Position numbers and translations under genes: made by a program. The notes beneath the pieces are model-generated. The model was not told where the DNA came from and searched no databases. It saw nothing but the letters and a program-made list of their open reading frames with translations. Below, one piece after another: positions 10,755 through 35,002 of a stretch of 35,002 nucleotides of DNA; position 1 is the first letter of the stretch, and each line of letters starts with the position of its first letter. Source of the DNA: a virus. Where the stretch lies: UHGV virus genome UHGV-0140552; one strand, 5' to 3'.

Positions 10755-10919
10755 CCATGAATAACAGTACACAGGATTTTATAGACTATGAGTTCTCCAT
10801 GCTTCAAACTGTCACTATAGATTTTGTACTGACGGTATGTTAAAAATGTAGATGGATTTTTGTTTGACAAAAATTTAACCGCTTGTGTCCTTAAGAGTTT
10901 TATTAAAACTAGGTTTTTT

Positions 10920-11402
10920 ATGATAAAAATAGATGAACTAAAAGAAGCCGTTTCTACTTTTGATGACGTTTCTGATCTCAATGTTTCTAACAAAGGAGTT
11001 AATTTTAAATACCAAGGCGTTCAGACTATTATTAATACGTGTGAGAGTGATAAAATTTCAGCGAATAAAATAATTGTTATGAATTCTTTTAAGTCCCCGG
11101 AATCTATTGACAGTAAGATTATGGGTGAAAAAATCGCGGAGATTGTTAATATGACTTCGCTGTCCCCTGCGAAGACTACTTATGTACACTTCCCTGATGA
11201 TGGTGGAGCATTCTTTTTTAGAAATATATTTTCGGATAAATTAAATGCTTTGGAATATAATGACGATGTTTCCAGGCGGCTATTCTTATCTAATTTGAAG
11301 GTTGTTCTTCTCGGAATGATGCTGGAGAATTATAACTGCTTTCATGATGTTAAAGAAGAGGCTTCGAAACTGTGTGAGGCGCTGAATGATGAAAGCAAAT
11401 GA
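10920..11402 (+). CDS. Hypothetical cytoplasmic protein (160 aa), gene 1 of an AT-rich two-gene cassette
   Basis: ORF in a markedly AT-rich island. First ATG at 10920 (the ORF track extends to a TTG at 10860). No recognisable motif. Confidence 0.6.
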   Translation: MIKIDELKEAVSTFDDVSDLNVSNKGVNFKYQGVQTIINTCESDKISANKIIVMNSFKSPESIDSKIMGEKIAEIVNMTSLSPAKTTYVHFPDDGGAFFFRNIFSDKLNALEYNDDVSRRLFLSNLKVVLLGMMLENYNCFHDVKEEASKLCEALNDESK

Positions 11403-11787
11403 TGCTCCACGTATAATTATACAGCTGATTTTAAGTGCGTTTGTATTTTTTGCTTTCTCTTTTAAATATAAGGCCCAATTAATAGGGTTTCTTTCTGAAC
11501 AGGTATATTACCAATTGTTGATAATAACAGTCATATTGACTGGGTATTTTTCACGCTGGATTGATGAGTTGCGTATTTTCTTATGTCATCATTTTATGAT
11601 GACTTGCAATAAGCAATATAAAGTAAAGTATCTCAAGGACAATGCATCGGTTTTGTTAAAGCAGGCAGAGAATGCTAATATTTCAGAAGAAGCGAAAGCA
11701 ATGGTTTCTGAAATGACTGGTTCAGATTTTGAATTGGAGGTTAAAATTAAATCTTTAAGTGAGGAAATAAAAAGAATAAAAGGTTGA
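11386..11787 (+). CDS. Predicted membrane protein with 2 TM helices and a C-terminal coiled coil (133 aa), gene 2 of the AT-rich cassette
   Basis: Two hydrophobic segments (IIIQLILSAFVFFAFSF; QLLIITVILTGYF). Overlaps the upstream gene by 17 nt, implying co-translation. Confidence 0.65.
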   Translation: MMKANDAPRIIIQLILSAFVFFAFSFKYKAQLIGFLSEQVYYQLLIITVILTGYFSRWIDELRIFLCHHFMMTCNKQYKVKYLKDNASVLLKQAENANISEEAKAMVSEMTGSDFELEVKIKSLSEEIKRIKG

Positions 11788-11831
11788 TGGAGTGTTTATT
11801 ATTTGAGATAGGACTAATTATGAATTGTTAA

Positions 11832-11866
11832 ATAAATGAAGAGGTGATCTCACTCTCTTCATTTAT
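11832..11866 (+). terminator. Perfect 12-bp inverted repeat ATAAATGAAGAG / CTCTTCATTTAT with 11-nt loop; possible cassette terminator or protein-binding palindrome
   Basis: Read from sequence, 45 nt downstream of the cassette stop codon. The U-tract is weak. Confidence 0.4.
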
Positions 11867-11940
11867 CATCTAGTAAGTTATCAGTTCCAGTGGACAGAAA
11901 AAATAATATTTTACGTTGAGATAATTCCCTATGCATAGGT

Positions 11941-12147
11941 TCAGAAAATAATAGGGATGAGATGTAGGTTACTGGACAAAAATCGAGCTAGTAGGCCGAG
12001 TACATCGCTATGCTGATCCGATAGGATGATGCGCGAGTTAGTGGCCACATCAAATCGATCAGCAAACGCCTGTGTGGAAAGTGCGATGAGTCGCTGCCAA
12101 TCATCTCCTGCCCGTGTGCTTAAACTGTCAGCATAGCGAACAACCAT
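11941..12147 (-). CDS. Doubtful small ORF (68 aa from ATG 12147)
   Basis: ORF without a convincing Shine-Dalgarno. Could be a gene remnant. Confidence 0.25.
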   Translation of the reverse strand: MVVRYADSLSTRAGDDWQRLIALSTQAFADRFDVATNSRIILSDQHSDVLGLLARFLSSNLHLIPIIF

Positions 12148-12278
12148 ACCAGACAAAACAGAACCGTCAGAAATGGCGGTTTTCTTTATAATTCAATCGG
12201 ATATTTTGAGGTTTATTGTTGATTTTTAACGATTCGTGCTCTTAAAAATTTGCGCTCACTGTCAGTTGGTAGTATATA

Positions 12279-12298
12279 TACTGTAATTTTATACAGTA
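12279..12298. promoter_or_regulatory. LexA (SOS) box TACTGT-AATTTTAT-ACAGTA
   Basis: Perfect CTGT-N8-ACAG with the flanking TA/TA of the E. coli-type consensus TACTGTATATATATACAGTA. Overlaps a candidate promoter (-35 TTGGTA 12266-12271, -10 TATACA 12290-12295) and lies 20 nt upstream of a GTG start. Confidence 0.7.
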
Positions 12299-12318
12299 TT
12301 GTTGTTGAGGGAGAGGTA

Positions 12319-12510
12319 GTGGTTGATAAGAAAGACGCAGGAGACCTTCTCCCCGACGATGGTGATGTACTGATAACGTGTGAAAATGGGAAGATTAAGA
12401 AGACCAGAATTGTCCATTCCGATGAGCACGTAGCGACACTTAACGCGTTGTTTGAATTAGCTAAATTGACGGGTTATACCATTATCAAACCAGACGGCAA
12501 TATGCTATAA
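12319..12510 (+). CDS. Small protein (63 aa, GTG start) under the LexA box; candidate SOS-controlled antirepressor or induction factor
   Basis: GGGAGAGG Shine-Dalgarno 5-6 nt upstream of GTG 12319. The longer ORF-track call would place the LexA box inside the coding region. Confidence 0.5.
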   Translation: MVDKKDAGDLLPDDGDVLITCENGKIKKTRIVHSDEHVATLNALFELAKLTGYTIIKPDGNML

Positions 12511-17835: not shown

Positions 17836-18135
17836 TTATTGCTTATTAAGCCAATCGAGGCCAGTGGCTGTTATAAAGGTTTGTCTGGTATCGATAAGCC
17901 AACGACCTTCACCGCGTTTAGGGTTGTCTATCTGCGCTCCATCCTCATCAATATATAAGTATTGAACCTGTGAGGATATCAGTCCTTTTTGATACATATA
18001 GAGAATGTGGCCATCAAGTTTATCTTCGCCATACGTCCTTAATAATTTGGTATATCCATCAGTCATTAATGGGTGCGGATAAAACTCTTGCAAATATTTT
18101 AATATATCGAAACAAACATTTTCTTCAATTTTCAT
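17836..18135 (-). CDS. Moron: hypothetical protein (99 aa) on the opposite strand between scaffold and capsid genes
   Basis: AT-rich island. TAAGGAAT Shine-Dalgarno upstream of ATG 18135. Orientation opposes the virion operon. Confidence 0.55.
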   Translation of the reverse strand: MKIEENVCFDILKYLQEFYPHPLMTDGYTKLLRTYGEDKLDGHILYMYQKGLISSQVQYLYIDEDGAQIDNPKRGEGRWLIDTRQTFITATGLDWLNKQ

Positions 18136-18202: not shown

Positions 18203-18218
18203 TGGTCGGGATTCCGAC
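18203..18218. repeat. Hairpin motif GGTCGG-GATT-CCGACC (copy 1 of 4), upstream of the capsid gene; followed by ATCACTCCA at 18235-18243
   Basis: Identical 20-mer TTGGTCGGGATTCCGACCGC recurs at 30919-30938. Confidence 0.8.
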
Positions 18219-18369
18219 CGCGCACCTCGCTAACAATCACTCCATAACCAGCCCGGCGGGGACGCCGGATACCTGATTTCTCCCGCAATGCGCCAGCGCC
18301 AACCGCATTGTGCAGATTTGGGCCGGGAAACCGACACCCCGCAGGCGATTTTTTACTGGAGTGATTTTT

Positions 18370-19898: not shown

Positions 19899-21889
19899 TG
19901 CGCGCGAACCTGATAAAAACCAATTTTACCGCGGGTGAAATTTCCCCGCGCCTGATGGGGCGTGTTGATATCGCCCGCTATGCCAACGGTGCAAAAATTA
20001 TCGAAAACGCGGTGTGCGTGGTGCAGGGCGGTGTCGTTCGCCGACCGGGTACGCGCTTTGCCGCTGCCGCTAAATATGGTGACCGGACAGCACGACTGAT
20101 CCCCTACGTCTTTAACCGCTCGCAGGCGTACATGCTCGAATTTGGCGACGGGTATCTGCGCATCTACCAGAACGGCCGGCAGCTGGTAAACGACGATAAT
20201 ACCCCGTATGAAATCGCCAGCCCGTACACCGTCGATATGTTGTCTGAGGTGAATTACGTGCAGGGCGCTGACACGATGTTTTTAGTGCACCAGAGCGTCC
20301 CGCCGCACCGCTTGCAGCGTAAGGGGCAAACTGATTGGGTACTGGAAGCCGCGCCGTTTATCGTGGAACCATTCGACGAAATCCGCGACACGCCGGAGAA
20401 ATGGTGTAAGCCATCGGTTAAAGAATTCGTCGGCTCAGAAATCACGCTGACGCTCAGTGATGCCGAACCCGCAGATGATGACGATTCCCCCGCGTTTACT
20501 GGTACCGGCTGGGTATCGGAGGACGTTGGTTCGTACGTTCGTATTAACAGCGGTCTGGTGCTAATTAAGAGCATCACCAGCGCGCAGATTGCTGTCGGCA
20601 CCATCCGCACCGATTTAAGCGCAACGCAGGCGGCATCCCCCGGAGCCTGGACACGTGAAGATACTGTCTGGACGGAGGAATTTGGCTACCCCGGCGCGGT
20701 GACGCTGTACCAGCAGCGGCTGGTTCTGGCTGGTTCCCCGCAGTACCCGCAAACAATCTGGTGGAGCGAAACCGGCGTTTACCTGTCGTTTGAGCTGGGA
20801 ACGGACGACGACGACGCGATCAGCTTTACGCTGTCTTCTGACCAGTTAAACCCGATCGTGCATCTGGCGCAGATGAATACGCTTATCGCGCTGACGTACG
20901 GCGGCGAGTTTACAATCACTGCCGGCAGCGACGCGGCGATCACCCCGACCAATATTTCGGTAAAAAATCCCAGCCCGTACGGCTGCAACAGCATTCGCCC
21001 GGTTCGTGTCGGTACCGAAATTATGTTTATCCAGCGTGCCGGGAAAAAACTGTATGCCGTGGCGTATGACCCCGACAGCTACGTTTCGTATTCCGCCAAT
21101 GATTTAACGGTGCTGGCCGAACACATCACGGCCGGCTGCGTCCTCGATATGGCGTATCAGCAACAGCCTGATGCGTTCGTGTGGCTGATCCGCGCCGATG
21201 GCGTACTGGTGACGATGGGTATCGACCGGGCGCAGGATGTAGTCGCATGGTCACGCCAGATCACCGATGGCGTTTTTGAATCGGTGGCGAGTATTCCCTC
21301 GGAAAGCGACGACGTGATTTATGTTCTGGTGCGCCGGGAAGTTAACGGCCAGACCGTTCGTTATGTTGAAGTATTCGACAGCAACCTGAATACCGATTCC
21401 GCAGTAACCGGCTCCAGTTCAGAAGGTGCCACCACGTGGACAGGTCTTTCTCACCTCAATGGAAAAACGGTTGATGTGGTGGCCGATGGTTCCGTGATGC
21501 CGCAGGCAACGGTAACAGACGGGCAAATCACTCTCAGCCGCAAAGCGAAAAAAATCGAAGTAGGCCTGCATTACGAAACCACCATCCAGACGCTGACGCC
21601 GGAAATCTCAACGACAGAAGGCACCACGCAGAACGCCCGCAAGCGTACCAGCGAAGTCACGCTCCGCTTTATGGAAACCACTGGCGCGGAGTGCAACGGT
21701 CAGGTGATCCCCTTCCGTACCTTCGGCCCAAAAATCCTTAACCAGCCCGCGCCACTTTTCACCGGTGATCATTATTTCGGGAAACTTGGCTGGGAGCGCG
21801 GGGAAGACACTTTGATTATTCAGCAACGCCAGCCGCTGCCGTTTCATCTGCTGGCGATTATTTTCACGTTCTCCAGCAACGGGGGCTAA
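19898..21889 (+). CDS. Tail tubular protein B, gp12-like (663 aa)
   Basis: Large protein translationally coupled to the gp11-like gene. Assigned by synteny. Confidence 0.6.
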   Translation: MRANLIKTNFTAGEISPRLMGRVDIARYANGAKIIENAVCVVQGGVVRRPGTRFAAAAKYGDRTARLIPYVFNRSQAYMLEFGDGYLRIYQNGRQLVNDDNTPYEIASPYTVDMLSEVNYVQGADTMFLVHQSVPPHRLQRKGQTDWVLEAAPFIVEPFDEIRDTPEKWCKPSVKEFVGSEITLTLSDAEPADDDDSPAFTGTGWVSEDVGSYVRINSGLVLIKSITSAQIAVGTIRTDLSATQAASPGAWTREDTVWTEEFGYPGAVTLYQQRLVLAGSPQYPQTIWWSETGVYLSFELGTDDDDAISFTLSSDQLNPIVHLAQMNTLIALTYGGEFTITAGSDAAITPTNISVKNPSPYGCNSIRPVRVGTEIMFIQRAGKKLYAVAYDPDSYVSYSANDLTVLAEHITAGCVLDMAYQQQPDAFVWLIRADGVLVTMGIDRAQDVVAWSRQITDGVFESVASIPSESDDVIYVLVRREVNGQTVRYVEVFDSNLNTDSAVTGSSSEGATTWTGLSHLNGKTVDVVADGSVMPQATVTDGQITLSRKAKKIEVGLHYETTIQTLTPEISTTEGTTQNARKRTSEVTLRFMETTGAECNGQVIPFRTFGPKILNQPAPLFTGDHYFGKLGWERGEDTLIIQQRQPLPFHLLAIIFTFSSNGG

Positions 21890-22341
21890 TGATGATCCGT
21901 AATGCAACCGCCGGTGATATTCCGGCGCTTATCGAACTGGGAACCCGGATGTACCTGGAATCCCGCTATTCCGAAAACTCACCCTTTGACGCGGACAAAT
22001 GCGCGGAACTGGCTGAGAGCCTGATTTATTCCCCCGCCGGATGCGTGCTGGTGGCAGAGAAAAACGGCCTGGTGATTGGCTGGCTCGGCGGCGGCATCGC
22101 GGAGCAGTTTTTTTCCCGCCAGTTGATGGCGTTTGAATATGGCCTGTTCGTCGCTCCGGAGTACCGGGGCGGCAGCGCGGGCCCACGGCTGGCCCGTGCA
22201 TTTATCGAATGGTCGAAAGAACACGGCGCCGCAGTGATCAACATGGGGATCACCACGGGCGTCCATGCCGAACGTACTGGCCAGCTTTATTCCCGCCTCG
22301 GTCTGCAACGTACCGGGCTGCTTTATTCGATGGAGGTTTAA
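21889..22341 (+). CDS. GNAT-family N-acetyltransferase (150 aa) embedded in the virion gene block
   Basis: Acetyl-CoA-binding-type motif FVAPEYRGGSAGPRLARAF. TAATG overlap with the tail tube B gene. Confidence 0.75.
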   Translation: MMIRNATAGDIPALIELGTRMYLESRYSENSPFDADKCAELAESLIYSPAGCVLVAEKNGLVIGWLGGGIAEQFFSRQLMAFEYGLFVAPEYRGGSAGPRLARAFIEWSKEHGAAVINMGITTGVHAERTGQLYSRLGLQRTGLLYSMEV

Positions 22342-22837: not shown

Positions 22838-25552
22838 GTGAGAATTCCAACGGGTAATTTTGGTAATGTGACACCGCAGGCACAGCAGACGCGTGTCGCT
22901 GTTAGCAATGTAGGCACTATAGGCAATGCGGTGTCTGGTTTTGGGACCGCTACAGGGCAGGTAGCAGAACAAGTACAGCATGAGCAGGATAAAGCCGATG
23001 TGGCAGCCACGCAGGCGATTCTGACTGATCTGGAAGCTAAATCTAATGACCGCTGGGAAAACCCGGAGACGGGCGCCACGGTCACTCGTCAGGGCTTTAA
23101 ATCGTCCGGTGTGGTAACCGATATGGATAAGGCCGACGCTGGCGATTACGAGGAAGCGCGGAAGCGCGTACCGCCCAACCAGTTAAACTATTTTGATGCG
23201 CAGTGGAAAGCAGGGCAGGTACGCCGGACAAGTACCTACAGCGGTTTCGAGCGTGCACAGACGGATGAGGCCCAGCGGCAGCAGCTTAATGCGACGGTGA
23301 CCACTTCCGTCGAACAAGAGGCCAGCGCATACGATAATCCGATGCAGGCAGGGCTGATACGTAGCGCCCGTAAACACTCGATCGAGATGTATGGCCAGGC
23401 GCGTGGCTGGCCGCAGGAGCGCATCGACGCGGCGGTATCAGAAGCGAACCAAAAAGCGCTGGAGCAGCGCGCGCAGAACTACGCGGTAACCAATCCCACT
23501 GGCTGGCTGAATGGCGATTTTACGTTGATTAACAGCAGCACCGGCGAACTCGATATGCGCGCCGTTGGCCTGGTGGAGTCCGGTGGTAAGCACCGCAATG
23601 CGGATGGTAGTCTTGTTACATCGCCCGCTGGCGCGCAGGGTGAATTTCAGTTGATGCCGGACACAGGGAAAGAACTGGCGGCTAAACGTGGCGTGGAATA
23701 CAACCCGGACGATCCTGTGCAGCATGCGCAGCTGGCGCGTGATTATGCCGGGCAGCTCAGTAAAAAATACCAGTCAGAACCACTGGCCGGGGCCGCGTAT
23801 AACTGGGGGATGGGTAACGTCGATAAACTGATCGCCAAAGTGGGCGACCCGCGCAAAGGCGAAATCTCGATGGCGGATTTCGTTAAGCAGCTGCCCGCAG
23901 AAACGCGCGGTTGGTTGTCCCGTTACAACAAAAATAAAACCGGTCTCGACCCGGTAGCAGTAAACAAAATCGACAATATCGCCGAAGCGCAGATCCGGCA
24001 GCAGCGTACGGCGCTGCGCCAGCAGATTGACCCGATTCTCAATAATACAATGGCGCAGCTGTATAACGGCGAGGTGCCGGATGCTATGCCGAACGCCTCC
24101 ACCATTTTGTTTGCGTATGGTGAGCAGGGGCAAACAGCGGTCAAGCAGCTGGATATCGCGATTGATAACGCCAGAACCTTCCAGGCTATTCAGTACGCCA
24201 CCCCGGCAGAACAGCAGGCCGAACTGGCGAAGGTGAAGCCGCAGGCAAACGATCCCGATTTTGCGCTAAAACTTGATGCACACGGCAAACTTAGCGCGCT
24301 GGTGCAGAAGAGCAACGCCAATATTCAGGCGCAGCGCGACTCCGCCCGCTTTAACGATGCGCTGCTCTCCGGCGAGAAACTCGACCCGAGCAATAAATCT
24401 ATGCAGAGGGCGGCGGACAATACGCCATCGGCGCTTAACTTCCGCATTAACGACGCCACCACTCACGACGCCATCGTGCAGCAGGTTAACCAGACCGGCA
24501 TTATCCCATCGCAAGTTACATCGCAACTGAATGCGATCGCCCGTTCCAGCAGCCCCGGCGTGGTTAAGCAGGGCTCGACATTATTTAACGCGCTGTACGA
24601 AACAGATCCTGCCTCTGTGGGCGATATGCCAAAGGACATGCAAAGCTTTTACCTGACCGTTAAACAACTTACCGATTCCGGCATGGCGTCAGACGAAGCA
24701 GTGAAGCAGGCGCAGAACGTTACCTATAACCAGACTGATGCCCTTAAATCACAATTGTCTTCTACGCAGAGCACGAAGGAATACAAAAAAGAGCGTGCCA
24801 GCGCGATGGATTCCGCAGTCAGTAGCATGAAACCGTGGTACAGCTTTGGCGGTCCTGCAGCAGATGACCAGAATCTTAACGCCGTCAATTTCCGTAACGA
24901 CTACCAGTCGCTTTATGACATCAATTATCGCAACTCGGGTGGTAATGCCGATGTTGCCAAAAAGATGACCAATACCCAGATCGCGCGTACCTGGAGTCTT
25001 AGCGATGTGAACGGCAGCGCCCAGTTTATGAAATACGCGCCTGAAGCACTTTATAACTACGGGCCTTCTGGTTGGCAGGCTGCGCAGTGGAAAGAAGAGA
25101 AAGAGCGTCTGACCTATGGCGAACGTGGAGAAAAATTTGAAACCAGCCCGACCCAACTGGGTATTACATCAGGTTCAGCGCCCGTTATTACATCAAATAC
25201 ACCTGAATCCCAAATCGGTGGTGAACTGGAAATTACCCCTGACGTTTTAACCACGCGTAACGGTGACTACGCCATTATGGTTCGCATGAAAGATAAAGAT
25301 GGTAACGAGAGCGTACAGCCATATTACGATAAATTCAGGCGTCCGATGCGCTGGAAACCGTCGCTGGAAGACTGGGAACCGTATAAAAAAATGCAGCAGG
25401 AGCGGGAACAGCAAGGCGAAGAGGAATTATCACGCGGGAAAGATATTCGAGGCTTTAAGGAAAAACACCGAGCGCTCGATGAGCAATATCAGCGTTTGCA
25501 CGATGACCGTATGAACCGGGTTAAAAACTACTTTTCATGGAGCAATGAATAA
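22838..25552 (+). CDS. Internal virion (ejection) protein with lytic transglycosylase (SLT) domain (904 aa), GTG start
   Basis: SLT motifs ES...GAQGEFQLMP...AYNWGMGN around residues 250-330. Large size and position in the internal-core block. Confidence 0.75.
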   Translation: MRIPTGNFGNVTPQAQQTRVAVSNVGTIGNAVSGFGTATGQVAEQVQHEQDKADVAATQAILTDLEAKSNDRWENPETGATVTRQGFKSSGVVTDMDKADAGDYEEARKRVPPNQLNYFDAQWKAGQVRRTSTYSGFERAQTDEAQRQQLNATVTTSVEQEASAYDNPMQAGLIRSARKHSIEMYGQARGWPQERIDAAVSEANQKALEQRAQNYAVTNPTGWLNGDFTLINSSTGELDMRAVGLVESGGKHRNADGSLVTSPAGAQGEFQLMPDTGKELAAKRGVEYNPDDPVQHAQLARDYAGQLSKKYQSEPLAGAAYNWGMGNVDKLIAKVGDPRKGEISMADFVKQLPAETRGWLSRYNKNKTGLDPVAVNKIDNIAEAQIRQQRTALRQQIDPILNNTMAQLYNGEVPDAMPNASTILFAYGEQGQTAVKQLDIAIDNARTFQAIQYATPAEQQAELAKVKPQANDPDFALKLDAHGKLSALVQKSNANIQAQRDSARFNDALLSGEKLDPSNKSMQRAADNTPSALNFRINDATTHDAIVQQVNQTGIIPSQVTSQLNAIARSSSPGVVKQGSTLFNALYETDPASVGDMPKDMQSFYLTVKQLTDSGMASDEAVKQAQNVTYNQTDALKSQLSSTQSTKEYKKERASAMDSAVSSMKPWYSFGGPAADDQNLNAVNFRNDYQSLYDINYRNSGGNADVAKKMTNTQIARTWSLSDVNGSAQFMKYAPEALYNYGPSGWQAAQWKEEKERLTYGERGEKFETSPTQLGITSGSAPVITSNTPESQIGGELEITPDVLTTRNGDYAIMVRMKDKDGNESVQPYYDKFRRPMRWKPSLEDWEPYKKMQQEREQQGEEELSRGKDIRGFKEKHRALDEQYQRLHDDRMNRVKNYFSWSNE

Positions 25553-28446
25553 TGCCGATCTATCCGCAATCTGATGTTCCACCGAGCGTAATGGATAATG
25601 CTCTTCAGGCGCCAACTGGTTTTGATGTCTCTCTGCCTGAAGGAACTAACCCGGAGCCGCTGCAACAGCAACCGTCTGTATGGGATGCCGCTTTTCGTCA
25701 GAATAACCTGCTGGCCGGAGTGTTCCGCCCGGCTAAACAGTTCGAGACAGCGGAGGGGTATAACCCTTATTCTGATAAAAACGAACTAAAGGGGTACGAA
25801 CAATGGGGATCTGCCTTCGCTGATTCAAAATCCCCAGAGGAAACCGCCTGGATTAAAAACCAGATTGATGAAGAAAATGAAGATAGGCGCGTTACTGCTG
25901 AGGCAGGATGGGGCGGAACTTTAGCGAATATTGCGTCTGGCATGCTTGACCCTATCACAGTAGCATCAATGTTTATTCCCGGTGCGCAGGGAAGCCTGGC
26001 TGCGCGTATTGGTTCTCAGGTTGCTATTGGCGCCGCCGGTACCGCACTTAGCGAGGTAGCGCTCAATAACGAGCAGTACACCAGAACCGCCAGGGAGAGC
26101 GCAGCACACATCACAGCCGGCGCACTTCTAAGCGGTGTATTCGCCACTGCTGGCGCGATGATCACTCCAGCGGTAAGAAACGCGGCCACGCGTGAAGTGG
26201 CAGAGGCGCTCGATAATATGAACGTCTCGCCAACGATTAACAACGCAGCAGACGCCCTGGCGGATACTTTACCGAACGGTGGCAGCGTCGGCGCCATGCG
26301 TATTCGCGAAGCTACACTGGAAGACCTCACGCCGGTGTCTGGCGGCCCGCTTGGCAAGCTGGCTAAAAAAGCCGGTAGCTATCTCACGCCGATCACCCGA
26401 CTGATGGAATCCCCGTCAAAAGAAGCGCGCCGGACAGCGCTGGAGCTAGCGGAGAATAACTTCACGCTGGAAGGAAACCTGCGCGGTATCGAAACTCCGG
26501 TAGCTGCCGAGACGCGCGTACGTGGTTGGCGCCGCGAAGAGGCGGCCGTCGTTACTGCGAATAAGCAGGCATACACTCAGTATAAAGCTGAAGGCGGCGA
26601 TCTGGGTCATACGGCTTTCCGTGAACAGGTCGGCGAGGCGCTGCGTAACGGCGACGTGCACGTTAATGCGAAAGTGCAGGAAGCAGCGCAGGCAATGCGC
26701 ACAGTCATTAACCGCGTGAAGACGGCACAGCAGGAGCTGGGTTTGCTTCCGCCGGATGCCGAACTGAAAGCGATGGGGCAGACCAGCTATTTCCCTCGCG
26801 TGTACAAGGTAGGGAAAATTGTTAGCGAGCGCGATAAATTCCGCAATATGCTGGTTGACTGGTGGTCACGTGGTGAAAAAACCATGTCCCGCGAAGATGC
26901 CGAAATCGCCGCCGATACCACGATTAACCGTATCGTCGGGGCCAAAATTCCGCAGGAGTTCGCCAACGTCTTCATGGTGAAAGCACCAGGTAGCACCAAA
27001 TCGCGAACGTTGAGCGTCCCCGATCGCCTGATGAAAGATTATCTGGAGAGTGATGCAAATTACGTCCTGCAGCGTCATATCCGCGAAGCCTCAGCGGAGA
27101 TCGAATTAACCCGTACGTTCGGCAACAAGTCGCTGGATTCGCAGCTCGCCGCCATCCAGGACGAATACGACGCGCTGATGCGTTTACGCCCAGCAGAACA
27201 GGAAAAGCTGGCGAAGGCGCGCGAAGCCGACCTGCGCGATATTCTGGCGCTTCGCGATCGCCTCGTCGGTACCTACGGTATGCCGGATGACCCATCATCA
27301 TTTTTCGTTCGCGCTGGTGCTTTCCTGCGTAGCGCCAACTTTGTAACGAAACTCGGCGGCATGACGGTATCCGCTATCCCGGATCTGGCGCGCGGCATGA
27401 TGGTTAACGGCTTCAGCAATACCATGCGTGGATATGGCGCACTGATCACCCGCTCTCCGGCTTATCTCGCCAGCCGGGCGGAGCAGAAGAAAATGGCCGT
27501 TGGGCTGGAAACCATACTGCATACCCGCGCGCGTACTATGGGGGATCTGGTCGATAGCTCTTCTCGTACGACAGCTGCAGAAGCTGGCATGGAACGTATT
27601 ACTGATGTGTTCGGCAAGTTGACCATGATGGGCCACTTTGACGATATGAACAAATCGGTGAATGGCATGATCACGTCCGACGGTATTCTGTCCGGCGCGT
27701 TCCCTGCGAAGCGCCTGGCAAAACTCGGCATCAACGAGAATATGGCCGAACGCATCCAGCGAGAATTTCAGAGGCACGGTGAAGTTATTCAGGGCTGGCA
27801 TATCGGCAATTTCGAAAAATGGGATGACCAGTACGCCGCTGGACTTCTGCAATCTGCTGTGCTCAAGGATGTAAACAATACCGTTATCACGCCGGGTATC
27901 GGTGACACGCCGTTGTGGGCCAGCACCCCGTTGGGAAAAACCGTATTCCAGTTTAAGTCTTTTGCTACGGCATCCTATAACCGCGCGACGCTCGGCGGCC
28001 TGCAGGAAGGTACCGCGCAGTTCTATTACGGTACCGCCTTCCAGATTGGCCTTGGTTCACTGACCTATGCGCTTAAGCAGGCGGCCAACGGCCGGGAGGT
28101 TGATTTGACTCCGCAGAAAATGGTAATCGAGGGCATCGACCGCTCTGGTATTCTCGGCCCGCTGATGGAATACAACAACATGGCGGAAAAGGCATCCGGT
28201 GGGATGATAGGGCTCGGGCCATTGCTCGGTACCGGTACGCAGTCCCGTTACGCCAGCCGTGGCTTTATCGGTTCTGCGCTAGGGCCAACCTTCGGCCTGC
28301 TGGATACCGTTACTGATGTGACCGCCGGCGTGCTTAACGGCGATGCCGGCGATCGTGTTTTGCATAGTGTGCGTACGTTACTGCCGGGTAATAACCTGTT
28401 CTGGATTGCCCCACTGCTTAATCAGGTTGATCCGGGAATGCGATAG
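25552..28446 (+). CDS. Large internal virion / ejection protein (964 aa)
   Basis: Size and position (TAATG coupling to the previous gene), as for T7 gp15/gp16-like core proteins. Confidence 0.6.
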   Translation: MPIYPQSDVPPSVMDNALQAPTGFDVSLPEGTNPEPLQQQPSVWDAAFRQNNLLAGVFRPAKQFETAEGYNPYSDKNELKGYEQWGSAFADSKSPEETAWIKNQIDEENEDRRVTAEAGWGGTLANIASGMLDPITVASMFIPGAQGSLAARIGSQVAIGAAGTALSEVALNNEQYTRTARESAAHITAGALLSGVFATAGAMITPAVRNAATREVAEALDNMNVSPTINNAADALADTLPNGGSVGAMRIREATLEDLTPVSGGPLGKLAKKAGSYLTPITRLMESPSKEARRTALELAENNFTLEGNLRGIETPVAAETRVRGWRREEAAVVTANKQAYTQYKAEGGDLGHTAFREQVGEALRNGDVHVNAKVQEAAQAMRTVINRVKTAQQELGLLPPDAELKAMGQTSYFPRVYKVGKIVSERDKFRNMLVDWWSRGEKTMSREDAEIAADTTINRIVGAKIPQEFANVFMVKAPGSTKSRTLSVPDRLMKDYLESDANYVLQRHIREASAEIELTRTFGNKSLDSQLAAIQDEYDALMRLRPAEQEKLAKAREADLRDILALRDRLVGTYGMPDDPSSFFVRAGAFLRSANFVTKLGGMTVSAIPDLARGMMVNGFSNTMRGYGALITRSPAYLASRAEQKKMAVGLETILHTRARTMGDLVDSSSRTTAAEAGMERITDVFGKLTMMGHFDDMNKSVNGMITSDGILSGAFPAKRLAKLGINENMAERIQREFQRHGEVIQGWHIGNFEKWDDQYAAGLLQSAVLKDVNNTVITPGIGDTPLWASTPLGKTVFQFKSFATASYNRATLGGLQEGTAQFYYGTAFQIGLGSLTYALKQAANGREVDLTPQKMVIEGIDRSGILGPLMEYNNMAEKASGGMIGLGPLLGTGTQSRYASRGFIGSALGPTFGLLDTVTDVTAGVLNGDAGDRVLHSVRTLLPGNNLFWIAPLLNQVDPGMR

Positions 28447-28449
28447 CTA

Positions 28450-28968
28450 TTACGACTTACATGATTCGGGGGAAACCCCAAACCCAAACATGAGGGTTTT
28501 CCCTGAATCACTGTAGTAATTGATCATTATTTTTTTATTTTCTTTTCGGGTTTCGTAGAATAGCCGCTCTTGAGATGACACTGGGTAAAATCCATCTGGT
28601 GCACAATACAAATCCCTTAAATTTTTCAATGTTGAATTTTTAGCGTCTTCTGATGTAAATTTTATAAAATCGTCTGTGTAAACATTGGCATTGTAACTAG
28701 ATATGGTTTTACTTCCTTCCACATAGTGAGTATTAGTTTCACTAAAATCTGCGTTTTCTTTATAGGTTCGCAAGTGTAATACCGATACATGGATCTCAAT
28801 TTTTTTACCAGTGTCGATACCGTTAATGACCGTATAGTCGGTATATGGATTGGTAATCTGTATTCCTGGTCCGGATATAGGAACGATATATTTAGAGTCA
28901 TCAACTAAATCGGTTGATGCGAATGCTGCAAAGTGAAAGATTAGCAACAATGGAATTAATATCTTCAT
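28450..28968 (-). CDS. Moron: secreted/periplasmic protein with signal peptide (172 aa)
   Basis: AT-rich island, opposite strand. N-terminal signal peptide MKILIPLLLIFHFAAFA|STD. AAGGAG Shine-Dalgarno. Confidence 0.7.
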   Translation of the reverse strand: MKILIPLLLIFHFAAFASTDLVDDSKYIVPISGPGIQITNPYTDYTVINGIDTGKKIEIHVSVLHLRTYKENADFSETNTHYVEGSKTISSYNANVYTDDFIKFTSEDAKNSTLKNLRDLYCAPDGFYPVSSQERLFYETRKENKKIMINYYSDSGKTLMFGFGVSPESCKS

Positions 28969-28987
28969 TCTATTTACTCCTTGTGAT

Positions 28988-29003
28988 AGTCAGGATTCCG
29001 ACC
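28988..29003. repeat. Hairpin motif variant AGTCAG-GATT-CCGACC (copy 2 of 4), upstream of the terminase genes
   Basis: Read from sequence; shares the GATTC core and flanking arms with the other three copies. Confidence 0.7.
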
Positions 29004-29050
29004 TCAAAAAGAATACATCATAGCTCTATGGATAACCACGGGGCTTTTTT

Positions 29051-29392
29051 ATGCATTCAGATTACAAAACTCGCCTTACTGCTCTTAGCGATAAGCTCAC
29101 CGATGTAGTTCTGGAAGAAGCCGATCCGGACAACTGGCCGGGGGCAGGGAAGGAAATCACAAAGCACACTAAACAGGAACGCGGTGATCGGTACTGGCAT
29201 AAGAAGAACGCGGCCGCATCGCTGACGCTGCTGGTAAAAGTCCATTCGCTGATTGGCATGCATACGCGCGGGGGGACGCCTAAACCCGGCGAGGATCCGG
29301 ACGATGAAGCATTCCGCCTGGGGCAACAGGTATCTGCGGCTGAACGGGCAGCACAGGAAGTTATCGAACGCATACAACAGCGGAAAAAATGA
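29051..29392 (+). CDS. Putative terminase small subunit (113 aa)
   Basis: Small protein translationally coupled (ATGA) to the large terminase gene. Assigned by position. Confidence 0.45.
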   Translation: MHSDYKTRLTALSDKLTDVVLEEADPDNWPGAGKEITKHTKQERGDRYWHKKNAAASLTLLVKVHSLIGMHTRGGTPKPGEDPDDEAFRLGQQVSAAERAAQEVIERIQQRKK

Positions 29393-30999
29393 TTTCATTC
29401 GTCGCCTTTTTCATCATATGGGCGGAGCGGATGGGGTGGGAGGTTCCCGACTGCCATTATCGAGCCTGCCACTGGTTGGAACACCGCGGGGATCTCGCGG
29501 TGCTTCGCTGTTTTCGTGGCTTTGGTAAATCTACCATTCTGGCGGTGTATAACGCATGGCGATATTACCAGAACCGCCAGTACCGCATTCTTCACCAGTC
29601 TGAAGCTGACGGCACCGCGTACAAAACCAGCCGCGATACGCAGAACGTTTTACGCAATCACCCACTGACCAAAGGCATGCTACCGGACGGACAGGGAACC
29701 GTTGAACAGTGGTGGGTTAACGGCTCTCTGGATATGCGTAACGGCAGCATGTACGCAAAGGGGATCCTCTCTAACGTTACCTCGGCCCGCGCTGATGAAT
29801 GCCAGAACGATGACGTAGAAGTACCCCGCAATATCCAGACGCCAGAGGCGCGGGAAAAGCTGCGTTATCGTCTCGGTGAACAGACACACATTCTTGTCCC
29901 CGGCGGGCGAAAGCTGTTTATCGGCACGCCGCATACCCACGATAGCCTTTACGATGAGGTTGAATCTATGGGCGCCGACTGTCTGACCATCAAACTATTC
30001 GGTAAAGAATTTAGAATCGAGGAAAAACAGGCCACCGCGAGCCGTTACTCGTTACCGTTCCGGCCGGAATATGTTTTCGTCGGTATTCACATTGGCGCGC
30101 GACTGCTCGTTGAAGGTGTTGATTATCGTCTTAACGATGACGGTATCGAGTTTGCCGAGGCTCCCGGCACCACGGTTGACTGTTACGCCGATTGTGAATG
30201 GCCAGAAAGGTTCACTCCGGAGGAAATGACAAAGCGCCGTCGCGAGACTCGCACAATTAACGAATGGGACAGCCAGTACCAGCTGCACAGTAAACCGGTT
30301 GGCGAGGTTCGTCTCGATCCCGACCGCATACGCGAATACAACGTACAGCCTGAAATCCGGTACGCGAACCGCTCCTGCTCGATGTGGCTTGGCCAGACGC
30401 AAATTGTTGGTGCTGTTGCCTGGTGGGATGTGGCCACCGGCAAAGTTAAGGCCGACGCCTCGGCGTTCTCTCTGATTTTCACCGACGCACGCGGGCATCT
30501 GTACTGGCATGTTTGCCAGGGGCTTACGGGCGAACTGGCGGAATTCGACGACAACGACAAAATCACCGGCGGTCAGGTGATGCAGATTAAAGAGCTGGTG
30601 CTTAAATACCAGATCCCGCTGGTCTGCGTCGAGGTGAACGGCCCGGGCAGCTTTGCCGGGAAATTGCTGATTCAGGCACTAAAGGGTACCGGCTGCGGCG
30701 TACGGGAAGAATTCAGCGTGACCAATAAACAAAAGCGCATCCTCGATGCATTCGAAGCGCCGCTGTCGTCGCGCTTCCTCTGGGCGCATACCGACGTGCT
30801 CGACGGCCCAATGTATGACCAGATGCGCGACTTTAACCCGGCGCTGACTAATCAGCCAGATGACTTTATCGACTCTGGCTCTGGCGCAATCAGCTCAACA
30901 CCAGTGCGCATTGGTAAATTGGTCGGGATTCCGACCGCACAGGCGCGGGAACATTGGCAACCAAATGATGGCGATCACATGGTCGCCGTAGATTACTAG
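29389..30999 (+). CDS. Terminase large subunit (536 aa)
   Basis: Walker A-like FRGFGKST near the N-terminus, size, and coupling to the small-subunit gene. Confidence 0.75.
   Translation: MISFVAFFIIWAERMGWEVPDCHYRACHWLEHRGDLAVLRCFRGFGKSTILAVYNAWRYYQNRQYRILHQSEADGTAYKTSRDTQNVLRNHPLTKGMLPDGQGTVEQWWVNGSLDMRNGSMYAKGILSNVTSARADECQNDDVEVPRNIQTPEAREKLRYRLGEQTHILVPGGRKLFIGTPHTHDSLYDEVESMGADCLTIKLFGKEFRIEEKQATASRYSLPFRPEYVFVGIHIGARLLVEGVDYRLNDDGIEFAEAPGTTVDCYADCEWPERFTPEEMTKRRRETRTINEWDSQYQLHSKPVGEVRLDPDRIREYNVQPEIRYANRSCSMWLGQTQIVGAVAWWDVATGKVKADASAFSLIFTDARGHLYWHVCQGLTGELAEFDDNDKITGGQVMQIKELVLKYQIPLVCVEVNGPGSFAGKLLIQALKGTGCGVREEFSVTNKQKRILDAFEAPLSSRFLWAHTDVLDGPMYDQMRDFNPALTNQPDDFIDSGSGAISSTPVRIGKLVGIPTAQAREHWQPNDGDHMVAVDY
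30921..30936. repeat. Hairpin motif GGTCGG-GATT-CCGACC (copy 3 of 4), inside the 3' end of the terminase gene, upstream of the tail fibre gene
   Basis: Exact copy of the 18203-18218 hairpin and its 20-nt context. Confidence 0.8.
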
Positions 31000-31016: not shown

Positions 31017-33536
31017 ATGTCGGTACCGAACCAGACACCCTATAACATCTATACCGCCAACGGGCTGACGACTGTCTTTGCCTATGAGTTTTACCTGATC
31101 AGCGCCAGCGATATTCAGGTCACAATCAACGGCAACGAAGTAACGTCCGGCTATACAGTGTCTGGTGTGGGTAATACTGGCGGTGGCGAAGTTACTTTTC
31201 TGACCGCGCCGGCCAATGGCGCTACAGTCATTTTTGAACGTGTAACGCCGACTTACAGGCTCACTGATTACCAGGACAACGGCGACCTGCTGGCCGATAC
31301 AGTTAACAAAGATTTTGACCGTCTCTGGATGGCTACTCAGCGCGCGTTTATTTATCTCGGAGTGGCCCTAAGTCGCCCGCTGTTCGGCGGTGGACCTTTC
31401 AACGCTAACGGCTACCGGATAGCAAATCTGGCCGATCCAGTTAACGATCAGGATGCAGCTACTAAAAAATTTGTAATTGAAAATGGAAAAATTAATCTAG
31501 CTCGTACTCTACGCGTTCCGGAGTCTAGCATCACACCGTTACCTTCCATTGCAGAACGAAAAAATAAAATCGTTGCAATGGATAATAATGGCAATCCATT
31601 GATGGTATTGCCTTCGAGTGGAAGTGCAGCAGATGTAATGATTGAGTATGCCAAACCGACAGGTAGCGGGCATATAGGGGTTCTTACTGGAGGCACCGTT
31701 GAAGATGCAATAAAATACGTAACCCCTGAAATGATAAGGATTAATGGTGAAAGATATATTCACGGCATCACTGCTGATGCAACTAAATTTCTACAGGCAG
31801 CTATAGATTACGGAAAAGCTAATAACCTTCCGGTATATTTAACTAAAATGTATCCGTGCATATCTTCACCGATAGAGTTTAATTTGCCATTCGACGATGG
31901 GACTGTATACCCAGGGTGGATAGGGAACGGTGATTCAAATATTGCTCCTGAAATACCAGTTAAGGCAAAAGCAGCACTGCGTGTTTATGATGATTCAATG
32001 ATTGTTGGTGAAAACCAACACAATTGTGGGATTATTGGTAATTTTTCAAAAACTGCGGGACCATGGGATCATACATCTTCCATGGGTCTATACATCGCAG
32101 GTGACAGCGGACCAGATCAATACATAAAGTATCACCTTTCTGATTTCAGGATTAGCGGATTCTTTATTGGGCAATGGGTAGACGGGACTGTAAACCGCTG
32201 TGTAGAAAATAATATGATGTACTCAGGGTGTGCCATTCCTGCTTGTTATCAAGGATCTGATTCTCTGGCGCAAACTGGGCTGACATTATATTGGTATAAT
32301 ATTACAGGCCCTGTTTTTGGCGGGCGCTGGCTAACGAGAAATCATGCATACGCGTCTCAGTACCTTCCGCCGTACCCGGCATCAGATATTCATCGGGCGG
32401 GATGGAATGATTCGTACCATGTAGACAAGTTTCATTATTATGGTGATACCGGCATGGACTGGACACATCCAGCATATGCCGCTCTTGACACTTGGTTTGA
32501 TACGTATGTTTTCAAGTCTGCAAACTGCTTGCCTACGGCCAGCGGTGGTCGGTTGTCAAATAATCAGCAGAATGGGGTTTACCCAGTTGATACCTATAGA
32601 GGTATAGCTGGGCGCGCAAGAACTATTATTTCACTTCCGGGAAGGGAGATATTGCATTGCAATATTGGTGAGGCTAAAGTGCTGTGGTCTCCAAGAACGC
32701 CATTCTACCACTCTGCTCAATTCGTTGACGGATTTAAATCATATGTTGGTAACAGTAAAATAAGGACTCTTATACTGGAAAGGGTAGGAATCATCAAGTA
32801 TGGCCTTGGTGATGTTGCTGGAAATAGATTTAATGTTAATAATGTTGATCCCTACGAACCATCTCTTTCAACATTTCCAGCGATGGCAACAAGAGGAAAT
32901 ATTTTCGCCCTTGATATTGTAAAAGGTGGCGCGGTTCAGGCTGCCCCAGTTAATGAATTTAACGGCACAAGAATCGGTGCCGGTGAGAATATAGTTGCTC
33001 AAAGAAAGCTTGGAGATAATTCAAACTATCGTCTTTTCGGTCTTCAGGAGTTAAACGGAACAAATTTATCCGATAAGTATGTTTTTAATCGAAATGATGC
33101 CTATATGCCGCCAATAGCTTTTCCCGGTGGTAATGCTGCTCAGTTTAAGTATCTTTATGGCTCATTCACACCAACTATTACAATTGGCGGGGCAAGCGTA
33201 ACGCCATCATCCATTACTGGAATTTACCGTAGGTTTGGTGATGTTGTTCGTTGCGATATAAGAGTCAGATCAACCTCTTTACTGGTTAGTACTGCGGGAG
33301 CCATAGTCATTAGTGGTCTTCCTTTTACAGCCGCCTCAATACAGGAGGGTGGGTCTAAAGGAAGCATAATTCTAAGCACGGCTACAGGAGTTTTTGTTAT
33401 GCCGCTTGTTCCTGCAGGGACAAATCAAATGACGATTATAAAATCGTCAGCCCAAGAAATATATTCTCAAGCAGCTGGTACTTTTGATTTTACTCTCCAG
33501 TGTACTTTTGATTATGTTGTTCCTTTTAATTCATGA
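31017..33536 (+). CDS. Tail fibre / tailspike (839 aa) with T7-like N-terminal adaptor domain and an AT-rich distal receptor-binding region
   Basis: N-terminal segment NGYRIANLADPVNDQDAATKKFV parallels T7 gp17 (RGRRIVNLANAVDDRDAVPFGQL). GC content drops after about 31450. Confidence 0.8.
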   Translation: MSVPNQTPYNIYTANGLTTVFAYEFYLISASDIQVTINGNEVTSGYTVSGVGNTGGGEVTFLTAPANGATVIFERVTPTYRLTDYQDNGDLLADTVNKDFDRLWMATQRAFIYLGVALSRPLFGGGPFNANGYRIANLADPVNDQDAATKKFVIENGKINLARTLRVPESSITPLPSIAERKNKIVAMDNNGNPLMVLPSSGSAADVMIEYAKPTGSGHIGVLTGGTVEDAIKYVTPEMIRINGERYIHGITADATKFLQAAIDYGKANNLPVYLTKMYPCISSPIEFNLPFDDGTVYPGWIGNGDSNIAPEIPVKAKAALRVYDDSMIVGENQHNCGIIGNFSKTAGPWDHTSSMGLYIAGDSGPDQYIKYHLSDFRISGFFIGQWVDGTVNRCVENNMMYSGCAIPACYQGSDSLAQTGLTLYWYNITGPVFGGRWLTRNHAYASQYLPPYPASDIHRAGWNDSYHVDKFHYYGDTGMDWTHPAYAALDTWFDTYVFKSANCLPTASGGRLSNNQQNGVYPVDTYRGIAGRARTIISLPGREILHCNIGEAKVLWSPRTPFYHSAQFVDGFKSYVGNSKIRTLILERVGIIKYGLGDVAGNRFNVNNVDPYEPSLSTFPAMATRGNIFALDIVKGGAVQAAPVNEFNGTRIGAGENIVAQRKLGDNSNYRLFGLQELNGTNLSDKYVFNRNDAYMPPIAFPGGNAAQFKYLYGSFTPTITIGGASVTPSSITGIYRRFGDVVRCDIRVRSTSLLVSTAGAIVISGLPFTAASIQEGGSKGSIILSTATGVFVMPLVPAGTNQMTIIKSSAQEIYSQAAGTFDFTLQCTFDYVVPFNS

Positions 33537-33543
33537 GGCTAAT

Positions 33544-33813
33544 ATGACTTTCAGAGTGACGCAGACCATAGGAAAATCTATAGCATATCCAACGCTAGGT
33601 GTATGGATGCCATCAGAAGATACATCGATTGAAGTTGAATACCAGGCTGTATCGTTAATATCGCTAAATAATGGAACAGCGACTGTTTCATTTAAAGTTA
33701 GCATTGATGGTTGTCTTTCCTGTGGGGAGCTTACCCATTCTTTTGTGTATTCTGGGTCAGGAAGCCCTCTTGAAGAGGCAGAGGAATCACTTAAAAGAAA
33801 ACTCCAAATATAG
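33544..33813 (+). CDS. Hypothetical protein (89 aa) downstream of the tail fibre gene
   Basis: ORF in an AT-rich region with ATG at 33544. Possibly a fibre accessory protein. Confidence 0.45.
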   Translation: MTFRVTQTIGKSIAYPTLGVWMPSEDTSIEVEYQAVSLISLNNGTATVSFKVSIDGCLSCGELTHSFVYSGSGSPLEEAEESLKRKLQI

Positions 33814-33823
33814 AATTTCATTT

Positions 33824-33839
33824 AGTCAGGATTCTGACC
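33824..33839. repeat. Hairpin motif variant AGTCAG-GATT-CTGACC (copy 4 of 4), upstream of the lysis cassette; followed by ATCACTCCA at 33861-33869
   Basis: Read from sequence. Confidence 0.7.
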
Positions 33840-33895: not shown

Positions 33896-34126
33896 ATGCG
33901 AATGAAGAATTTACCGGATGTGGCGGCTGGCACGTCGTACATCACATCCACTGTCAGCGGGAGCTACTGGCTGCTGCAACTTCTCGATAAGGTAAGCCCC
34001 AGCCAGTGGGCGGCTATTGGCGTACTGGCCAGTATTGTTTTTGGGCTGCTTACCTACCTCACTAATTTGTACTTCAAAATCAAAGACGACCGGCGGAAGG
34101 CACAGGACTATGAGCAACAAAGCTAA
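33896..34126 (+). CDS. Holin (76 aa), probably pinholin-type
   Basis: Small protein with a hydrophobic helix ([23 protein letters not shown]) and charged C-terminus, immediately upstream of and overlapping a SAR-endolysin gene. Confidence 0.6.
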
Positions 34127-34646
34127 GTTCAGCGCCGCTATGCTGGCGCTTCTGGCCGCCGGTGCATCTGCACCGATACTGTTCGATCAGTTTATCAGCG
34201 AAAAAGAAGGTAACGCGCTGGTGGCCGTTGTTGACCCCGGCGGTGTGTGGTCATTGTGCCACGGAGTAACCGTTATAGATGGCAAGCGTGTCATTAAGGG
34301 CCAAAGAGCAACTGAGGAACAGTGCAGGAAGGTAAACGCCATTGAGCGTGATAAGGCGCTTGCCTGGGTAGAAAAGAATGTGCTCGTTTCTTTGACGCCG
34401 CCGCAGAAGGTCGGCATAGCCTCATTCTGCCCGTACAACATCGGGCCGGGTAAATGCTTCCCCTCAACGTTCTATCGCAAGCTGAACGCAGGCGACCGTA
34501 AAGGTGCATGCGCGGAGATCCGGCGATGGGTGTTCGACGGAGGCCGGGATTGCCGACTGACCAAAGGCCAGAAGAATGGCTGCTACGGGCAGGTTGACCG
34601 CCGCGATCAGGAAAGCGCTTTGACGTGCTGGGGGCTGTACGAATGA
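34110..34646 (+). CDS. SAR endolysin (lysozyme, 178 aa)
   Basis: Weakly hydrophobic Gly/Ala-rich N-terminal signal-anchor ([17 protein letters not shown]) followed by a lysozyme-like catalytic segment ([26 protein letters not shown]). ATG 34110 lies within the holin 3' end. Confidence 0.75.
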
Positions 34647-35002
34647 ACGGAAAAACCAAACTGGTGATTGTTGGTGGCGTGCTGGCGGTATGCGCCGGGA
34701 TTTACTGGGCGGGGTATCTGAAAGGCTGGTACGCACATTCAGAGCAAGTAAACAGCCAGGCTAAACAAAGGCTACCGAAGCAGGAAAAGGCAGTTGCCGC
34801 TGGTGAGCAGAAAGCAGCGACGGCGAACGCCGAAGCCAAAGTGATTTACCGTACCGTTTATCGTGATGTGGTGAAATATGTCAATGACCCGAATCGTACT
34901 GTGTGCCAGTTTGATCCTGCTGCTGTGCAGCTGCGCCAACGAGCAATCGACGCGGCCAACGCCATCCCCGGATTTGATGAACCGACCGTGCAAGATAAGT
35001 AA
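34643..35002 (+). CDS. Rz-like i-spanin (119 aa)
   Basis: N-terminal TM helix followed by a charged, Ala/Gln/Lys-rich periplasmic region. ATGA overlap with the endolysin. Stop codon at 35000-35002. Confidence 0.7.
   Translation: MNGKTKLVIVGGVLAVCAGIYWAGYLKGWYAHSEQVNSQAKQRLPKQEKAVAAGEQKAATANAEAKVIYRTVYRDVVKYVNDPNRTVCQFDPAAVQLRQRAIDAANAIPGFDEPTVQDK
34884..35002 (+). CDS. Rz1-like o-spanin lipoprotein, embedded in the +1 frame of Rz; 3' end runs past the window
   Basis: ATG 34884 opens MTRIVLCASLILLLCSCANEQSTRPTPSPDL..., with a lipobox (LLCSC) and Pro-rich mature region. Not in the ORF track because it is truncated by the window end. Confidence 0.55.
   Translation, partial: MTRIVLCASLILLLCSCANEQSTRPTPSPDLMNRPCKIS

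Follow-up and report, generated by a model that had tools for sequence, protein, structure and literature searches.

The window, by which we mean the whole 35,002-nt stretch of viral DNA that was analysed (UHGV virus genome UHGV-0140552), is essentially one complete temperate prophage with a T7/epsilon15-like structural module, and a DnaB helicase gene is also encoded in it. Among phage genomes, megablast found no close relative of either the locus or the 21-kb late region, and TL-2011b was the only match by tblastn. The following genes frame the locus:

1-1017, minus strand: integrase
5264-5650, minus strand: CI-type repressor
15114 (start): portal, structural module
18310 (start): capsid, structural module
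22838-25552: SLT-domain internal protein, structural module
25552-28446, plus strand: gp16-like last internal virion (ejection) protein, 964 aa, phrog_342/16310
29051-29392, plus strand: terS, small terminase, phrog_9277, divergent from the gene studied here
29389-30999: terL, following terS
31017 (start): T7-type tail fibre
33896-35002: lysis cassette, far from the gene studied here
34017 (start): lysozyme

Among the internal virion and tail genes there is also a GNAT acetyltransferase gene (21889-22341), which is annotated in the E. coli relative L001 too.

Between the gp16-like gene and terS lies a gene of 172 codons on the minus strand, antisense to all late genes, just as the original prediction had described it. 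A gap of 3 nt separates its stop codon from that of the gp16-like gene, and its start is 82 nt from terS. The features in and around it are these:

28450-28968, minus strand: moron coding sequence, phrog_8033 member, 172 aa, ATG start (coordinates include the stop)
28453-28917, minus strand: predicted mature periplasmic domain, 155 aa, AspS/PA3611-like alpha/beta fold in the model
28459-28461, minus strand: invariant Cys170, from the family alignment
28603-28605, minus strand: invariant Cys122, from the family alignment
28918-28968, minus strand: predicted Sec signal peptide, aa 1-17 (MKILIPLLLIFHFAAFA), cleaved between AFA and ST, from by-eye reading and the subfamily alignment
28977-28982, minus strand: Shine-Dalgarno AAGGAG, 8 nt before the moron ATG
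28988-29003, no strand assigned: backbone hairpin copy, AGTCAG-GATT-CCGACC on the plus strand, right boundary of the slot and part of the moron 5' leader
29017-29022, minus strand: TATGAT, a -10-like hexamer and candidate promoter only, 48 nt upstream of the moron ATG
29022-29050, plus strand: terminator-like hairpin with T6, a backbone feature (2983-3011 in L013), ending exactly at the terS ATG

The strong Shine-Dalgarno sequence and the low GC content that had been claimed for this gene are both there, the latter at 0.35 against 0.54-0.55 in the flanks (0.348 for 28501-29000, and 0.554 and 0.538 for the two flanking 500-nt bins). The dN/dS ratio of the gene is 0.10 against a Salmonella homologue and 0.13 against a Klebsiella homologue, in comparisons where synonymous sites are near saturation. 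Together with about 40 clusters of homologues, these ratios indicate a real coding gene under purifying selection. A second AT-rich island lies in the early region at 10860-12500 (GC 0.32-0.35), with plus-strand ORFs at 10860-11402 and 11386-11787, neither of which matches Pfam, PHROG, NCBIfam or PADLOC; possibly the island is a further cassette for accessory or defence functions.

At the sequence level, the sole match of the moron protein is to phrog_8033 (E 4e-46), whose function is given as hypothetical. Exhaustive searches gathered the roughly 40 homologue clusters, all from Enterobacterales and all named 'hypothetical', and the family occurs on several hundred contigs of Klebsiella, Salmonella, Citrobacter, E. 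coli, Providencia and Proteus, with one Salmonella cluster alone on 354 contigs. We found no literature on it. Residues invariant across the family include P30, Y121-C122, Y151-Y152 and C170. Divergent members, from Providencia, Proteus, Superficieibacter, TL-2011b and some Klebsiella, have no cleavable signal peptide but an N-terminal membrane anchor, with an LELSG.A..FF motif after it, and lack the 29-aa insertion of the window's subfamily; these anchored proteins are the older members of the family. Database lengths for the family are unreliable because called ORFs can run on into, or overlap, the 3' end of the gp16-like gene. In three distant homologues (P0030, P0033 and P0040) the called ORF continues into the antisense of that 3' end (tail ...PHSRVDLVNQWRYPEQVIT), and in Superficieibacter the convergent pair shares about 30 nt (L012 7491-7519).

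The most consistent property of the family is its position. In every locus examined, the family gene and a gp16-like gene converge directly, 3' end to 3' end, with a gap of 0-30 nt or an overlap; this covers loci from Salmonella (L003, L004), Klebsiella (L005-L007), Providencia (L009-L011), Superficieibacter (L012), E. coli phage TL-2011b (L002) and Raoultella (L016, L017), as well as 13 of the 13 IMG/VR loci that reach that far. The gp16-like proteins at these loci are 42% to 82% identical to the window's over their full length, and those at the IMG/VR loci up to 99% identical over the C-terminal 350 aa. The opposite flank varies, and may hold terS, a P22-like immI region, or Bro-N and toxin morons. 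All of the loci examined are prophage. In Klebsiella prophages the ATG of the homologue lies 20 nt inside the end of an Mnt-like gene, which shares 46% identity with P22 Mnt over its ribbon-helix-helix domain (E 6e-13). Arc-like (E 3e-8) and Ant genes run divergently from it, in an immI-like region. The homologue there is probably co-transcribed with the Mnt-like repressor gene. Since P22 Mnt is a maintenance repressor made in the lysogen, this overlap suggests by analogy that the Klebsiella subfamily is very probably expressed from the prophage.

In close relatives of the window, the slot between the gp16-like gene and terS is empty or otherwise filled. Along with the foreign composition, the export signal and the strong Shine-Dalgarno sequence, this bears out the proposal that the gene is a moron in the sense of Hendrix, an additional gene within the late region: it is inserted between genes that are adjacent in relatives, and its base composition is distinct. 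In E. coli B379 (L013) and Enterobacter sichuanensis (L015) the slot is empty, with 64-66 nt from the gp16-like stop to terS, and the B379 sequence reads stop, 2 nt, the hairpin GGTCGGGATTCCGACC, a terminator-like hairpin and the terS ATG. The window's gp16-like protein shares 92-95% identity with those of the empty L013 prophage and of L001, which carries an unrelated cassette; in L015 the identity is 87% over the C-terminal 350 aa. The cassette of L001 (E. coli 23GD11002; 20150-20542, minus strand) encodes an unrelated, secreted, Rap1a-like protein of 130 aa with two cysteines. Its Pfam match is weak (E 0.036), and a 66%-identical Serratia homologue has the UniRef name 'Rap1a immunity protein domain-containing'. 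This cassette suggests that the slot can carry orphan immunity genes.

Other occupants, in a census of one genome per species, are a 106-aa secreted protein in Trabulsiella (L020 6081-6401, plus strand), a 208-aa AT-rich ORF in Rosenbergiella (L018 6153-6779, plus strand), an Acyl_transf_3 acyltransferase on a contig labelled Pseudomonas lundensis (L024 5410-6528, plus strand), and, in two Raoultella species (L016 6050-6484, minus strand, in one of them), a very divergent member of phrog_8033 itself, which matches over the C-terminal domain only (24% identity, hhalign E 3e-6) with both cysteines aligned. Proteins with a hydrophobic N-terminal segment are among the products of these cassettes, and nearly all of the alternative cassettes encode envelope proteins; the slot is thus a hot spot of envelope-directed morons. 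Sequence comparison indicates that the window's gene is one horizontally acquired accessory cassette among these.

The P. lundensis contig and a contig labelled Algoriphagus oliviformis (L025) carry copies of an enterobacterial prophage protein at 85-86% identity; the latter contig is only 378 bp long, and assembly contamination may be the cause.

We found no co-variation between the moron allele and the C-terminus of the adjacent gp16-like protein. Compared with the window's, that C-terminus shows 98% identity in R. lignicola but 77% in R. scottii, and near-identical C-termini occur beside an allele of about 24% identity, beside another cassette or beside none, which leaves allele-specific recognition of the adjacent gp16-like product unsupported.

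A copy of a hairpin motif had been pointed out in the upstream region of the gene. It is real and lies at 28988-29003, but it is an element of the phage backbone that is present in empty slots as well, and we therefore rejected it as a moron-specific regulatory element. The 16-nt hairpin (GGTCGG-GATT-CCGACC) has four copies in the window, all in the same orientation: before the capsid gene (18204-18219), at the moron slot (28988-29003), within the last part of terL, immediately ahead of the low-GC tail-fibre gene (30921-30936), and after the tail-fibre module (33824-33839). Four copies within 3 mismatches compare with 0.2 expected, and none of 100 shuffles reached four. Copies stand at matching positions in the related prophages L001, L003 and L013, and there are none in TL-2011b-type loci. 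Where the junction of a terS-type slot was read, the cassette is flanked by the gp16-like stop and this hairpin; L001, L016 and L020 share the junction, and the empty L013 slot keeps the hairpin, which makes it a fixed right boundary of the slot. It may act as a module junction or recombination linker, in RNA stability or processing, or as a regulatory site.

Other hairpin copies have neighbors of their own. A 99-aa minus-strand ORF (17836-18135) with a weak phrog_3983 match (E 4e-5) occupies the 500-nt gap between scaffold and capsid, about 70 nt from a copy, and could be another antisense moron in the same arrangement. Past the conserved T7-type N-terminal adaptor, the tail-fibre gene (31017-33536) has a GC content of 0.41-0.45, and a hairpin copy stands on either side of the gene; the region looks like an exchanged host-range cassette. 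A minus-strand ORF beside another copy (33531-33821) was discarded as spurious, as the overlapping plus-strand ORF matches phrog_7836.

In slots with minus-strand cassettes the left arm of the hairpin reads AGTCAG, so that all six pairs, two of them G-U, form only in the minus-strand RNA. Within the leader of the moron (28969-29016, minus strand) the hairpin can be extended to a stem that pairs UAUUCUUU (29006-29013) with the Shine-Dalgarno sequence AAGGAGUA. Related loci keep this pairing, some of them in a shifted register and with few independent covariations, and the stem in the window is not significant (z -1.4); there is only a hint here of translational damping. The TATGAT hexamer is kept in 11 of 13 IMG/VR terS-type loci and in L003, L004 and L016, has no acceptable -35 and was not called by a consensus scan. 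That scan found no sigma-70 promoter or terminator for the window copy, and no terminator between the convergent genes. In Providencia, by eye, a promoter-like TTGACG lies upstream of the homologue and a hairpin downstream. We infer expression of the window copy in the lysogen from its relatives, namely from this Providencia element and from the overlap with the mnt-like gene in Klebsiella.

On the other strand, the terminator-like hairpin that ends at the terS ATG likely holds the terS ribosome-binding region in its 3' arm. Its stem sequence differs in L013 and L003 with the pairing kept, and in the empty L013 slot a 76-nt stretch that includes the motif hairpin folds at -28.9 kcal/mol (z -4.8), much more strongly than the window's. 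Such a hairpin suggests that the late genes are split into units, or that antitermination or translational control is needed. A search of 28000-29500 against Rfam gave no match.

The protein begins with MK, followed by ILIPLLLIFHFAAFA and, past the cleavage site, STD; a basic residue is thus followed by a hydrophobic core of 15 residues and an AxA motif for cleavage. We judged this signal peptide by eye from the sequence rather than with a dedicated predictor, and it is kept across the subfamily, in agreement with the export claimed at the outset. Neither the moron protein nor its membrane-anchored relatives have a canonical lipobox cysteine. Lipoprotein status was accordingly rejected for the moron protein, and so was a receptor-blocking exclusion lipoprotein of the Cor, Llp or Ltp types, to which there are no family matches either. 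Two invariant cysteines in an exported domain would be expected to form a disulfide in the periplasm.

The original prediction had recognised no domain in the protein, and this stands for its sequence: neither it nor its relatives match Pfam, NCBIfam or PADLOC, with no Pfam match even at E up to 10. It does not stand for predicted structure. A first AlphaFold model built from a shallow alignment was unusable (pLDDT 56.6), and a second, of the mature domain with distant homologues added, reached a pLDDT of 81.7 and a pTM of 0.74. [quoted passage not shown] The mature domain is thus predicted to have an AspS-type alpha/beta topology. Of the invariant cysteines, one is placed where the long central helix (90-104) ends and the other in the C-terminal helix (150-153). 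A subfamily-specific insertion of about 29 aa is modeled with low confidence, and it and an N-terminal YIVP segment set the protein apart from those of AspS/PA3611 type. Sequence searches of the PDB with three profiles gave chance-level matches only (PilA, OprF) and no pilotin chain, hhalign against E. coli AspS/YghG gave a probability of 0.2%, and the best hit of a BFVD viral fold search was not significant (E 0.11). By its model the moron protein shares the pilotin fold, yet it is not a pilotin, because it has no lipobox and no secretion-system context.

We tentatively propose, at slightly less than an even chance, that the moron product is a periplasmic superinfection-exclusion factor that acts on incoming ejection proteins. 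It would be made in the lysogen, exported by Sec and freed of its signal peptide, and its folded form in the periplasm would be an alpha/beta domain with the pilotin-like AspS/PA3611 fold, stabilised by a disulfide. On infection by a related podovirus, whose ejected gp14/15/16-like internal core proteins would build a trans-envelope conduit for the DNA, the moron protein would bind one of them, or the assembling conduit, and DNA entry would be blocked. It would then be a soluble, periplasmic functional counterpart of P22 SieA, with the older members anchored in the inner membrane.

Several observations point this way. The strict linkage to the gp16-like gene comes with the same position, orientation and size as P22 sieA, and the extreme divergence of alleles at one slot resembles that of SieA types A, B and C. 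Only in the periplasm could the product meet incoming ejection proteins, and a pilotin-type fold, known to clamp a C-terminal peptide, would suit a binding-type inhibitor. The slot is a hot spot of envelope-directed morons, and the Klebsiella homologue overlaps an Mnt-like repressor gene. Against exclusion stand the lack of a consensus promoter or terminator at this locus, of a match to any PADLOC defence model and of a significant BFVD match, as well as the lack of co-variation with the neighboring gp16-like protein. Synteny points to superinfection exclusion, and nothing in our data is specific to adhesion or serum resistance, for which the original prediction had suggested tests.

The product might instead be a lysogenic-conversion factor with no part in phage exclusion, serving host envelope physiology through, for example, protection from toxins or colicins, stress tolerance or a virulence trait. 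We think this unlikely. The features of a moron together with export would suit such a role, as would the Rap1a-like alternative cassette of E. coli 23GD11002, which perhaps shows a slot open to orphan immunity genes, and the closest structural match, PA3611, is a secreted protein whose function is not known. However, a conversion factor leaves unexplained why the family is never found away from the gp16-like 3' end when its other flank can be wholly different, and the protein has no similarity to known virulence or immunity families in Pfam or NCBIfam.

A periplasmic role in the lytic cycle, either sensing or blocking superinfection during the latent period or setting the time of lysis in the manner of T4 RI, a periplasmic antiholin that modulates lysis timing, strikes us as improbable. 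The predicted location would be right for it, no lysogen-type promoter was found, and late in growth the divergent terS region could be a source of transcription. However, transcription of the late operon should interfere with a gene that lies antisense to it and has no terminator between itself and its convergent neighbor. Close relatives of the prophage also do without the gene, the linkage to an mnt-like gene in Klebsiella prophages argues against a lytic role, and the lysis cassette is distant.

Most improbable of all, we judge, is a pilotin mimic that alters secretion or secretin-dependent processes by binding, in the periplasm or at the inner membrane, the S-domain of a host secretin of the T2SS or another system: the three top structural matches and the two cysteines, which seem placed as in the conserved AspS/PA3611 disulfide, speak for it, and against it are the missing lipobox, and hence no piloting to the outer membrane, the lack of sequence similarity to E. 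coli AspS/YghG or to pilotin chains in the PDB, a gene that is never near secretion genes, and host genera with different pilotin classes or no classical T2SS (Salmonella is not known to have one), which make a common secretin target unlikely.

Superinfection exclusion thus remains the reading we prefer. In a stronger form, which we regard as somewhat unlikely, the moron protein would be the founding member of a new exclusion family, a pilotin-type periplasmic clamp on ejection proteins of the T7/epsilon15 type that stops the assembly of the conduit. If so, periplasmic blockers would in general be exchanged for one another at the site that follows the last ejection-protein gene, and this site would be to podoviruses what the sieA locus is to P22. 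Should the protein block entry, the pilotin fold of secretion systems would have been reused in conflict between phages; the protein would offer a soluble and easily purified probe of the poorly understood periplasmic stage of podovirus genome ejection, and it would be a widespread prophage-borne resistance determinant in Klebsiella and Salmonella, relevant to the choice of therapeutic phages. Should it not, the gene would be an ordinary uncharacterised moron. Overall, we describe a widespread accessory gene in a sieA-like position that plausibly encodes a new type of exclusion protein.

Among known systems, the fold compares best with AspS and PA3611. AspS binds the S-domain of the secretin and clamps a C-terminal segment of another envelope protein; in AspS and PA3611 a conserved disulfide ties helix alpha2 to the C-terminal helix alpha4, and PA3611 has an extra short helix (PMC3542185). 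Set side by side by eye with the published structures, as the fold searches give no residue alignment, our model has a similar order of elements (a beta-hairpin, two helices, a beta-hairpin, a C-terminal helix and the extra short helix of PA3611), and its two conserved cysteines appear, from their helix positions in the model, to be at the sites of the alpha2-alpha4 disulfide. Like PA3611, the moron protein has a signal peptide with no lipobox. Unlike the AspS and EpsS pilotins, it is encoded in a prophage beside an ejection-protein gene and not at a T2SS locus, and it has no detectable sequence homology to them.

HxsA of the HXS defence system is also periplasmic and is reported to stop the entry of phage DNA, including that of T7, after adsorption (PMC13128918); it differs from the moron protein in belonging to a chromosomal multi-gene system with radical-SAM maturation and proposed DNA binding, and is unrelated in sequence and gene context. 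A closer parallel in mechanism is T4 Spackle, a small Sec-exported periplasmic protein that excludes superinfecting phage by inhibiting the gp5 lysozyme (PMC7677548). The mechanism proposed for the moron protein is of the same class, periplasmic binding of a virion-delivered protein during envelope penetration. Spackle, in contrast, is an early gene product of a lytic phage, and has no sequence or fold match to ours in Pfam, PDB or BFVD searches.

P22 SieA is the closest parallel in position. It blocks DNA injection, with escape mutations in the ejection proteins gp16 and gp20, its types A, B and C are under 30% identical to one another, and it is a polytopic inner-membrane protein with a cytoplasmic FxRYPxEAxxFNK motif (PMC10883804). 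P22 sieA encodes 164 aa on the minus strand, 22 nt after gene 16. In both cases a prophage accessory gene of about 165-170 codons lies on the opposite strand right after the last ejection-protein gene, an mnt/arc/ant immI region adjoins it (in some relatives of the moron), and an envelope protein with highly divergent alleles is encoded. The proteins themselves differ: hhalign against P22 SieA, which is of type A, found no similarity (probability 0.3%), and by inspection the motif and the polytopic topology are absent from the moron protein, which has one N-terminal hydrophobic segment, a cleavable signal peptide here and a single anchor in the older members, and a globular periplasmic domain with a probable disulfide. 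The phages differ too, as those of the moron have core proteins of the T7/epsilon15 type and not P22 gp7/20/16. The most economical reading is that the moron product would be a periplasmic exclusion factor of the prophage, a positional equivalent of SieA whose mechanism would be closest to that of T4 Spackle.
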